A stretch of DNA of 64,000 nt from a candidate division WOR-3 bacterium (lineage in GTDB: Bacteria > Hydrothermota > 32-111): NCBI GenBank assembly GCA_039804105.1, contig JBDRZU010000001.1:192001-256000 (forward strand), in the 5' to 3' direction. Positions 27,001 to 30,000 of the stretch are shown here, piece by piece. The position numbers are program-made. How positions within the stretch are numbered: position 1 is the first letter of the stretch; every line of letters starts with the position of its first letter.

Positions 27001-30000
27001 AAATTTTTAAATTTTAATAGAAAATCTATGAACTCTTTAAAATTTAACCCACCTGCTTCAGGTGTTCCTGTTCCTGGAACAACAGAAGGATCAAGAACAT
27101 CGAGATCTATTGAAATATAAATTTTTTTATTTTTGATAAGATCAAAATCGAAAGAATCAGGTCGCTCATTAAAAAAGAGAAGTTTTTTTGAAAATTCGTA
27201 CTCTTCTTCTGTATAAGATCTGATGCCGATCTGACATATTCTTTTCTCACCAATCAATTTTGTACAATTTCTTATTACACATGCATGTGAAAATTTAGTT
27301 CCCATATATTCTTCTCTTAAATCTGCATGAGCATCAAAAACTATTAGAACAAAGTCGTTGTAGAAATCGTTGAAAGCTTTTATTATCGGATAAGTTATCG
27401 AATGCTCCCCGCCGAGAGAAATTATTTTTTTGTTTGATTTTAAAAGTTTTTTTGTTGTTTTAAATATTATTTCATTTGTTTTTTTGATGTTTCCTAAAGG
27501 TAATTCAATATCACCCATATCGAAATAATTTTTCGTATGGATATCTTTTTTTTGATAGTTTGAAAAAGTTTCAAGGTTCCAAGAAAAAAATCTTAATGAA
27601 TTTGGTCCATTCCTTGAACCTGCTCTAAAAGATGATGTTGAATCGAAAGGATATCCGACGATAACGATTTCAGAATTTTTTTTATCCTCTGATGATTCGA
27701 GAAAATTATAGATCATAGATCTTTTTAACAAAGTTTGGCAAAGCGAACGAACTTTTGTGAATCTCGTGGTTGTAATAGTTTAAACTTTTTTCAAAAGGTT
27801 TTATTAATTTTTTATCTTTTACTTCTATGTCGAAATTTTCTTTTGAGCATATCATAAAATTCCACATCCCAGATGGATATGTTGGTATGAATGCAAGATA
27901 AGGTTTTACATGTTTAAAAACTTTTTTCATCCTTTCATATATAATTTTAACAGATTCTTTATGAAGGTATGGACTTTCGGCTTGAACTGTTAAAAAGCCG
28001 TTTTTACTTAAAATCTTATGACAGTTTTTATAAAATTTTTCTGTAAAAAGTCCTTCACCTGGTCCTATTGGATCAGAAGAGTCAATAATTATGAGATCAA
28101 AATTTTCATTTGTTTTGTTGACAAAATCAATTCCATCTCCAATTATGATGTTAGCATTTTTTGAAAGATTTTTTGTTAACTGAGGGAAAAATTTTTTAGA
28201 TGATTTTACAACTTCACCATCGATTTCAACCATTTTTATTTTTTTAATGTGTTTATATTTTGAAACTTCTCTTAAAGTTCCACAATCTCCACCCCCAATT
28301 ATCAATACATTTTCTATATCAGGATTTATATTTATCGGTATATGGGTTATCATTTCATGGTAAACGAACTCATCCCTTTCTGTAAGCATTACTAGTCCAT
28401 CTAAGATCATTACTTTACCATATTCGTATGTGTCAAGTATCACGAGGTCCTGATATTTTGTTTTTTTTCTGTAGAGTGTCTCTTTGACTTTAAAAGTGAT
28501 CCCGGTATTTTTTGTATGGTATTCTGTGAACCAGATTTCGGTTTGCCCGGAAGTGTTGAACTCTTTCATTTTCACTCCCATAGAACTACAGCTGCGAACG
28601 CTGTTCCGATTCTTTTAACTCTATGTTCACATGCTTTGCTTTGAAGGGTAAAATTTGAAATACCTCTTACTTTCATCGCCTCTTCCGCCATACTTCTTAC
28701 AATATCTTCAATATCTTTTTTTCTTCCGTTTGAGGAATATTCCATTATAACACCTGGTAAAGAATCATCATCAGGTTTTGCTGCAGCAACACCAGCAGAA
28801 ATGTATTGACCTGTCATATCAGATGTGATCGATGCATAAGCAACCGGAATAAAACTTCCCTGGGGAATCTTTATGAATTTAACATTTTTACAATAAGGTG
28901 GGATTATTGAAGATATCTTAATAAGATTCATATTTCCTATTTTTGCGTTTAGAAGTGCACAGTCAAATGAATTCAATTTTGAAAAACCTTCTGAATGCCC
29001 CGCAACAAAGAAAAATCTTTTCGGAGTAAAAAGGTTCATTTTAAACTCCTATTTTTTCTGTTGAACTTTTATCAGTTTTGTGTTTCAATGTTCCATCAAC
29101 ATCAAAAAGTCCTCTTTTAACTTCCATCATGGAAGTTTCTTTAGCTTTCAATTTTTTTACAAGGTATTTGAATGAGATCCAGGGGTCAAGAGTGTTTCCG
29201 CAAGTGTAGATGTCTATCGATGCGTAACCATATTCTGGCCATGTGTGGATCGTGAGGTGGGATTCCGCTATTACTACAACTCCGCTAACTCCGAAAGGTG
29301 AAAAGTGATGAAAAGAACTTGAAATCACTGTTGCTCTTGCTCTTTTTGCTGCTTCAACCATGAGTTGTTCGATTTGAGCAACATCGTTTAAAATCGCTGA
29401 GTCACATTTGTAGAACTCAGCAAGAATGTGTTTACCTAGGGCTTGCATTCTTTCATACCTCCATAATCTGAAGTTAAAGGGTTTAACTGATACCTACACA
29501 AAAAAAGACACATACGAAACTCCTGTTTTGAAGGTATTATATATTTTTTTTTTATAAATTCAATAGGAAAAATTAAAAATTTTTTTATTGACAGAAAAAA
29601 AAATGGTTTTAATATAATAAATAGAAAGGGGGGAAGATGTCAAAAAAGAATATTTTAAAAATTTTGTTAATTCTATTATTGGCATCCTGTGCGAAAACTG
29701 GGAAAATAGAAGATGTGGATTGTTATTTGATCAGTATCAATGGTCCTTCAAAAATCTCTGTTGGAGAATCTGCAATATTCAACATTGTGGGTTATGACCA
29801 GAATTCAGCAGTGTTGAAAAATTCATCCTGTATAAAAAATGTTGACTGGGAATTACAAGGGGATAACATTTACATAGTTGAAAAGAAAGAGAAAAATTTT
29901 GTCAGAATTAAAGGTATAAAAAAGGGAATGTTCTGTATAAAAGCAACATATAAAGATCATAAAACTTATTTGAGTGTTACAGTAGAATGATTTTTATTGG

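Follow-up and report, generated by a model that had tools for sequence, protein, structure and literature searches.

The window analysed here, a stretch of 64,000 nucleotides from the genome of a candidate division WOR-3 bacterium (G000), carries on its minus strand the genes speD, pdaD, speE and speB, an operon whose identity, as given in an initial annotation, was confirmed by NCBIfam models (TIGR03330, TIGR00286, TIGR00417 and TIGR01230). Together the four genes constitute the complete pathway by which arginine and SAM are turned into spermidine. Upstream of speD, and reaching into it, we found an unannotated ORF that starts with ATG, stops with TAG and encodes a peptide of 25 residues, MCLFLCRYQLNPLTSDYGGMKECKP. 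The features of the region are the following:

29536..29563, minus strand: predicted sigma-70-type promoter, TTGAAT-16-TATAAT (consensus scan, 10 of 12 matches)
29520..29524, minus strand: Shine-Dalgarno (SD) sequence of the leader ORF, AGGAG, 6 nt 5' of the leader ATG
29436..29513, minus strand: leader ORF encoding 25 aa and ending in UAG, read in the +1 frame with respect to speD; omega 0.086 (codons 2-17)
29463..29483, minus strand: core of the peptide, (N/S)-P-L-T-x-D-(Y/F), spanning residues 11-17 and overlapping neither the SD nor the coding sequence of speD
29457..29462, minus strand: speD SD, GGAGGT, corresponding to leader codons Gly18-Gly19; -10.7 kcal/mol
29436..29448, minus strand: dual-coding overlap of 13 nt, Met-Gln-Ala-Leu in speD and Cys-Lys-Pro-UAG in the leader frame
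29426..29433, minus strand: speD codons 6-8, putative AU-rich partner of the leader start (29506-29513), 8 pairs
29041..29448, minus strand: speD, S-adenosylmethionine decarboxylase proenzyme (TIGR03330, 157.8 bits)
28572..29039, minus strand: pdaD, pyruvoyl-dependent arginine decarboxylase (TIGR00286)
27706..28581, minus strand: speE, polyamine aminopropyltransferase (TIGR00417, NF002010)
26892..27731, minus strand: speB, agmatinase (TIGR01230)

The initial annotation had described an uncalled 25-codon ORF with its own ribosome binding site (RBS), which fills the speD leader, runs over the speD SD and ends 13 nt inside speD in a different frame, and all of these points were confirmed. The ORF crosses both the SD, which it reads as Gly18-Gly19, and the AUG of speD, and its UAG lies 10-12 nt beyond this AUG in the +1 frame. 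Promoter sites of the type predicted here numbered 5 in the region versus 1.9 in shuffled sequences, and a TATAAT hexamer was located about 22-26 nt 5' of the leader ATG in all 12 carriers of the ORF described below. We infer from the sequence that transcription starts near 29529; because the predicted promoter lies directly upstream, the ORF would occupy nearly the whole leader, which measures about 80 nt. One RNA run placed only two short pieces, of 19-21 nt, and is uninformative.

In a crude gene set of G000, 15 of the 353 genes with 100 free upstream bases had an SD-led, out-of-frame ORF reaching their RBS, so the mere presence of the leader ORF is unremarkable, and it is its conservation, rather than its occurrence, that goes beyond chance. 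The peptide matched no NCBIfam or Pfam family, and all four of the leader peptides tried were absent from the protein collection, which may be explained by the length limits of gene callers.

The family of G000 comprised 13 genomes, 12 of them with a speD match, and the leader ORF was present in 10 of these 12, with an identical start, frame and end point, in four genera: G000-G004 (g1), G008, G011 and G012 (g5), G005 (g2) and G009 (g3). Two metagenomic loci, L031 and L032, both from close relatives, also carried it among the best 80 speD loci, giving 12 carriers, which all belong to a single family and amount to about five deep lineages. The claim that start, frame and overlap are shared by relatives from these four genera thus extends to G000, nine relatives and the two metagenomic loci, and G009 and G008, which had been reported as lacking the ORF and as unclear, respectively, both carry it, although the numbering of handles may differ. 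The whole-codon indels said to give peptides of 24-26 aa were borne out in part: there was a one-codon indel, on one branch, which alone is weak evidence, and the peptides were of 25 or 26 aa only. GGAG was found 4-6 nt 5' of the leader ATG in 12/12 carriers, with an SD/anti-SD pairing energy of -6.8 to -8.8 kcal/mol, and the order speD-pdaD-speE-speB was kept in the carriers with long enough loci (that of G002 stops at the contig end).

The leader ORF was absent from G007 and G010, which form genus g4 and in which a promoter-like sequence leads straight to the speD SD, and from all five genomes of family f2, where speD comes after another gene in each case. Neither speD nor pdaD was found in G006 (g3, 96% complete) with the queries used. 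The core pattern occurred exactly once in 10 of 18 genomes of the class, each time before speD, and the peptide motif had a single occurrence in the six frames of G000. No ORF with the PLTxD core was seen among the listed speD leaders of other families, and this type of leader ORF is apparently confined to one family. The close relatives of the SpeD protein bore the source labels WOR-3 or TA06.

Fourfold degenerate sites of speD differed at 0.47-0.68 between genera, indicating that neutral DNA is close to saturation. Residues M1, C2, P12, L13, T14, D16, G18, K21, E22, C23 and K24 of the leader peptide, and its stop, were invariant. For residues 11-17, the core, parsimony over 11 sequences counted 17 base changes, of which 11 were at third positions, but no more than 4 amino acid changes, 2 of which fell on the free position 15, in agreement with the earlier statement that the core is kept through synonymous changes. 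When 7 representatives were compared pairwise, pN/pS in the core was 0.13 versus 1.14 and 0.75 in the other frames, and plain counting gave 0.49 over codons 2-17 and 0.79 over codons 2-10. Under a codon model, omega was 0.086 over codons 2-17, a region outside any overlap that was not picked post hoc (LRT 35.1 versus omega 1), 0.038 in the core and 0.093 over codons 2-10, the p-values being only indicative because the parameters outnumber the codons. Purifying selection thus reaches codons 2-10, more weakly than the core. The other two frames contained stops in 12/12 carriers, and in neutral simulations on the fourfold-site tree none of 3000 runs left the 16 codons without a stop, and a single one of 3000 did so when the rate was reduced to one quarter. 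Codon 20, in the spacer between the speD SD and AUG, was written with six different codons, all of them for Ala, Ile, Met or Val. As the initial annotation had cautioned, conservation is in part imposed by the speD RBS and first codons, residues 18-25 being partly forced; the C-terminus was K-P-stop in 11/12 carriers and K-H-stop in one, G009, whose peptide has Asp19 and ends in His-UAG. These comparisons indicate that the leader ORF is very probably real and selected as a peptide. As is looked for in ligand-sensing arrest peptides, it is short, has its own RBS and lies immediately 5' of a gene, and amino acid selection peaks in the part that would span the ribosomal tunnel, as judged from few codons and few lineages.

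The speD codons under the overlap were also constrained. Leu4 was CTA or TTA in 11/11 sequences, both of which create the TAG of the leader, and Ala3, which gives the leader its terminal Pro, was GCC in 10/11, a codon that makes up 5% of Ala codons in G000. GCC was used as well at Ala61 in 6/11, and Gly5 was GGT in 11/11 although it lies beyond the leader stop, so some of the constraint may act at the RNA level or be inherited. Gln2 occurred also in genus g4, without the leader ORF.

A mean column identity of 84% in the leader and a weak hairpin predicted over the SD raise the question of whether conservation of the leader acts on the RNA or DNA (a protein binding site, a riboswitch or an anti-SD hairpin), with the ORF as a by-product. 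We consider this very improbable, because variation tracks the codon positions of the leader. Moreover, the G000 leader folded worse than its shuffles (z-score +1.47), 0/15 consensus pairs showed a compensatory change, no covarying, conserved aptamer-like structure was found in the leader, and the region had no Rfam match at the gathering score, as had been reported previously. On these grounds a conserved RNA structure was rejected, and so was a repeated operator or binding site, the core being present once per genome (10/18) and always 5' of speD. Two further candidates were discarded. Fusion of the leader to speD by frameshifting would require a -1 shift at CCC/CCT/CAT-UAG, which offers no common slippery site, and a +1 shift meets a stop immediately. 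Hyperthermophily as a ground for disregarding RNA structure was dropped, since no reverse gyrase scored over the cut-off and the composition corresponded to about 54 C.

We propose that the leader encodes a cis-acting ribosome-arrest peptide serving as a polyamine-induced OFF switch of the speD-pdaD-speE-speB operon, a reading that, built on sequence comparison, seems to us about evenly poised between right and wrong. The first ribosome on a new mRNA would initiate at the leader ORF, to judge from the promoter and the SD. At low polyamine levels it would read to the UAG and then depart or restart at the strong speD SD, leaving the operon on. At high levels of spermidine, or of a related end product, the PLTxD(Y/F) residues in the tunnel together with the C-terminal K-P would halt the ribosome on the stop codon or a little upstream of it, the speD SD and AUG would be covered, and initiation of speD would be blocked. 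A ribosome held in the last dozen codons of the leader, or at its UAG, has a footprint that covers the speD SD and start. Repression could spread to pdaD, speE and speB through Rho polarity, and Rho is present. Since the operon is the entire route to spermidine, end-product repression suits the geometry of the overlap. The strongest constraint falls 8-14 residues before the C-terminus, a depth like that of the sensor residues W12 and D16 of TnaC, which precede its P24-stop (PMC10941005). Spermidine riboswitches located before speE, speB or speD are OFF switches (PMC10853860), and the uORFs of eukaryotic S-adenosylmethionine decarboxylase (AdoMetDC) show a spermidine-induced stall at their stop (PMC2811004, PMC13025110, PMC7038982).

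Several observations count against an OFF switch. Genus g4 and family f2 use speD without such a leader; SpeFL and MdtU, the polyamine uORFs known from bacteria, both act as ON switches; G009 has His-UAG and Asp19; and residues 18-25 are partly forced.

Leader translation could also mediate polyamine or substrate control by another route, namely a choice between AUG and overlapping GUG starts, read-through of the UAG, or an early stall that would turn the operon ON in response to arginine, agmatine or putrescine. All 12 carriers start with AUGUG, a sequence that in E. coli is an ambiguous start used in two frames at short SD spacing (PMC9841429), and the GUG frame closes within the leader; the odc1 uORF likewise has two close starts (PMC8632094). 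However, the GUG frame is variable in length, at 5-15 codons, and unconserved. A helix of 8 bp may form between the leader start and speD codons 6-8, with 95.8% of the cells paired, but it shows no compensatory change, its probability at 37 C was 0.00 in G000, where it is missing from the ensemble, and 0.02 in G009, with the remaining ten carriers ranging over 0.14-0.95, and it may be due to chance because the SpeD protein fixes its 3' side. As the peptide constraint also peaks toward the end of the ORF, at a point where a stalled ribosome would mask the RBS, we find this route rather improbable.

The leader might instead provide constitutive translational coupling, by delivering ribosomes and melting a weak structure at the speD RBS, with a peptide that is no sensor. 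A short overlap with a strong internal SD fits termination-restart (PMC10666635), and the opening energy of the speD RBS (9.7-14.7 kcal/mol) tends toward the closed side, at the 65th-93rd percentile of 74 G000 genes with GGAGG. These values are nevertheless inside the normal range, speD in genus g4 is initiated directly from a promoter-proximal SD, and coupling does not need a conserved peptide, whereas omega in the core is 0.04. Coupling of this kind alone therefore appears unlikely to explain the leader.

Other speD leaders of the phylum bear on the arrest-peptide reading. A speD-family match was present in 129/271 genomes, and about 100 leaders outside families f1 and f2 were read (99 screened). 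One type, here called DNW-stop, is an SD-led ORF of 17-21 aa ending in (L)-(Y/F)-x-D-N-W-stop, and it was located 22-38 nt 5' of speD in 23 loci of six families (8 in f8, 6 in f23, 4 in f28, 3 in f21 and one each in f12 and f22). The initial annotation had mentioned such uORFs before speD in three other WOR-3 families; their presence was corroborated, and the number of families rises to six. A promoter-like TTGAC...TAnnnT preceded the ORF in 21/23 loci, and its pN/pS was 0.23 versus 2.09 and 1.26 in the other frames. The DNW motif was found in 28/271 genomes, 24 of them within the six families. When 185,579 species genomes were scanned for the motif plus an SD, 52 matches were obtained. Of these, 11 lay before speD and each had an SD-led start; a lineage was stated for 4 of the 11, in each case Hydrothermota or Hydrothermia; the remaining 41 look like chance matches. 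The DNW-stop type has an Asp three residues before the stop, as does MAGDIS, and in the mammalian AdoMetDC uORF the Asp of MAGDIS is essential. Restart coupling is largely lost at such distances in E. coli and Haloferax (PMC10666635), and since it would be mostly lost at 22-38 nt, a regulatory role can be argued for the DNW-stop ORF. The other type is an ORF rich in acidic residues that crosses the speD start in the -1 frame and in many cases begins from AUGGAUG; it was found in at least 21 loci of nine families, chosen by eye among the leaders listed. The DNW-stop and PLTxDY peptides had no common motif by eye, and in a SpeD tree with weak support G000 and its family stood apart from the DNW-stop and acidic types. 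The occurrence of these two types in the phylum supports a regulatory role for the leader ORF.

The same leaders help to weigh two further explanations. A released 25-aa peptide might have a target in trans, such as SpeD or SpeE, with the overlap being incidental, and the weaker purifying selection over codons 2-10 (omega 0.093) would agree with this. But 12/12 carriers agree in position, frame and end point, the peptide has no family match, and unrelated peptides occupy the same place in other families, which suggests that the place itself has a role; a trans-acting peptide is thus hardly probable. It is also distinctly unlikely that the leader senses the supply of Cys or Met, so that a pause under shortage of sulfur amino acids would block an operon that consumes SAM. 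It is true that 3 of the 25 residues are Cys, compared with 0.67% in G000 proteins, that Cys2 is invariant, that Cys23 sits on the speD AUG and that many DNW-type peptides contain 2-3 Cys. Yet there is no tandem run of Cys or Met, Cys6 is lost in 3/12 carriers, Cys23 is dictated by the Met-Gln of speD, no Cys is present in five f8 peptides of the DNW type nor in the f12 one, and the PLTxD residues would be left unexplained.

No bacterial speD leader peptide was found in the literature, subscription papers lying outside the coverage, in line with the earlier statement that no paper had been found; papers on motif discovery do not include speD in their main text, and the supplement of PMC11109978 may list such a uORF. 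A leader peptide of this gene is apparently undescribed in bacteria. To our knowledge, only a small number of nascent peptides that sense metabolites have been described in bacteria, and those with a link to polyamines found in print, SpeFL and MdtU, turn genes ON. If our proposal is true, a 25-residue OFF switch set on the start codon of its own operon would represent a novel sensor that follows a novel logic, and bacteria would have converged on the eukaryotic mode of AdoMetDC control. We also suggest, tentatively and with some leaning toward doubt, that bacteria possess polyamine-sensing arrest peptides which park the ribosome on the AdoMetDC start and shut the enzyme off, and that leader-ORF control of speD arose on three occasions in one phylum. 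In that case the PLTxDY, DNW-stop and acidic two-start types would echo the variety of eukaryotic AdoMetDC uORFs. Leader sequences as short as these open a way to ask how the ribosome reads polyamine levels.

Among known systems, SpeFL (speFL-speF-potE of gamma-proteobacteria) shares with the speD leader a conserved short leader ORF before a polyamine decarboxylase gene and a UAG stop, and arrest at termination is proposed here as it is for SpeFL. It has 34 aa, senses ornithine, lies 257 nt before speF and acts as an ON switch by blocking Rho (bioRxiv 10.1101/604074). The speD leader has 25 aa, precedes speD rather than speF, has no sequence family match and, instead of a long spacer with a Rho site, overlaps its gene by 13 nt; since it also overlaps the speD RBS, a late stall would turn the operon OFF, unlike SpeFL. 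MdtU (mdtUJI of E. coli) is a bacterial uORF required for the response to spermidine, with a conserved C-terminus, but it has 34 codons, its stop lies 106 nt before mdtJ, so that it does not overlap the RBS, and it induces an exporter via Rho antitermination (PMC7815308). The odc1 motif of alpha-proteobacteria contains a conserved short peptide over the start of ornithine decarboxylase; it is of 11 aa, uses the RBS of the main start and lies in a pseudoknotted RNA (PMC8632094), whereas at the speD leader two separate SDs stand about 60 nt from each other and no fold is conserved. Among the leaders of other WOR-3 families, the odc1 uORF is nearer to the acidic type with two starts.

TnaC, of 24 aa, has a key Asp in the tunnel and a hydrophobic residue five before its Pro-stop (W12, D16, I19, P24; PMC10941005). 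The distance from Asp to Pro is 8 residues in TnaC and 9 in the speD leader, a likeness of position only, and TnaC is a tryptophan sensor that depends on UGA and RF2 and turns genes ON by antitermination. The spermidine riboswitch, a SAM-I variant, exerts end-product OFF control of speE, speB or speD (PMC10853860), but spermidine and SAM riboswitches are structured RNAs and the speD leader has about 80 nt without such a fold or an Rfam match.

In the eukaryotic AdoMetDC uORFs (MAGDIS and the small uORF of plants) a uORF precedes the gene for the same enzyme, identified here by TIGR03330, and a peptide-dependent stall sterically blocks the main start (PMC2811004, PMC13025110, PMC7038982). They operate in a cap-scanning context and have no sequence kinship with the speD leader. 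Non-vertebrate AdoMetDC uORFs have a penultimate Pro (PMC2811004) and the speD leader a terminal one, its C-terminus being neither of the MAGDIS kind nor of the penultimate-Pro kind; the placement of the MAGDIS Asp recurs in the DNW-stop type and is lacking in the PLTxDY peptide. The description of the leader as a bacterial counterpart of the AdoMetDC uORF is fair as a functional analogy but does not hold as sequence kinship, and the terminal residue is His rather than Pro in 1/12 carriers. The leader belongs to none of the families compared and, by analogy, would function most like the eukaryotic AdoMetDC uORFs.

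A second conserved family of leader peptides, separate from the one in the window, was found before speD in six other WOR-3 families (f8, f12, f21, f22, f23 and f28). These peptides, encoded at loci L026, L021, L182, L188, L178, L186 and 17 further loci, are 17-21 aa long and located 22-38 nt upstream of speD, and the majority of them end in G-x-L-(Y/F)-x-D-N-W-stop (DNW-stop type). Their pN/pS was 0.23. The DNW-stop family is a cleaner candidate arrest peptide than the window's own 25-aa leader peptide. Leader peptides of the DNW-stop type were also seen at L229 and L244, in addition to these 23 loci.

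In family f6 (L019 and L183), the stretch TTA GTT GAC TGG TAA (L-V-D-W-stop) lies immediately 3' of the promoter without a start codon, and is perhaps a relic of a DNW-stop leader. Another ORF was observed in three nearly identical copies from family f13 (L027, L029 and L030), located about 70 nt upstream of speD in the +1 frame and containing L-F-Y-E-K-W; it has two SD-like motifs and no clear start, runs over the speD AUG and ends at the same Ala-Leu-Gly-derived UAG.

In genus g4 of the window's family (L010 and L011), the leader is only about 25 nt long, as though the segment between the two SDs were absent. The g4 operon also lacks pdaD, and no copy elsewhere in either genome was found with the query used. 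Genome G003 carries a second, divergent speD that lacks the leader ORF (L140, G003:C4:60170-61102). In family f26 (L126, L127, L129, L131-L133, L135 and L144), a GC-rich hairpin and an apparent tRNA-gene 3'-end lie directly upstream of speD.

The polyamine operon of the window is flanked by the following features:

23378-26908, + strand: carotenoid-type cluster (FAD oxidoreductase, squalene/phytoene synthase, a gene of unknown function, lycopene cyclase)
29588-29990, + strand: gene of 117 aa, together with a divergent promoter (TTGACA-16-TAATAT); the speD promoter lies in the same intergenic region

The cluster is convergent with the operon, its last gene overlapping the end of speB by 17 nt. 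The product of the 117-aa gene has a lipoprotein-like N-terminus and gave no family match.

In nine further families (f9, f10, f16, f17, f19, f30, f31, f32 and f35), an SD-led, acid-rich ORF (M-D-D-D, M-D-E-E-D, M-G-E-G-D...) crosses the speD start in the -1 frame (L018, L020, L025, L179, L181, L189-L192, L194, L195 and L199-L208, picked by eye). AUGGAUG is frequent here, the second AUG lying 4 nt downstream in the speD frame, and a +1 frameshift may occur at these leaders. These leaders are reminiscent of the two-start leader of odc1. In leaders such as mgtQ, acidic residues destabilise the ribosome, and the acid-rich speD leaders are similar to these as well.
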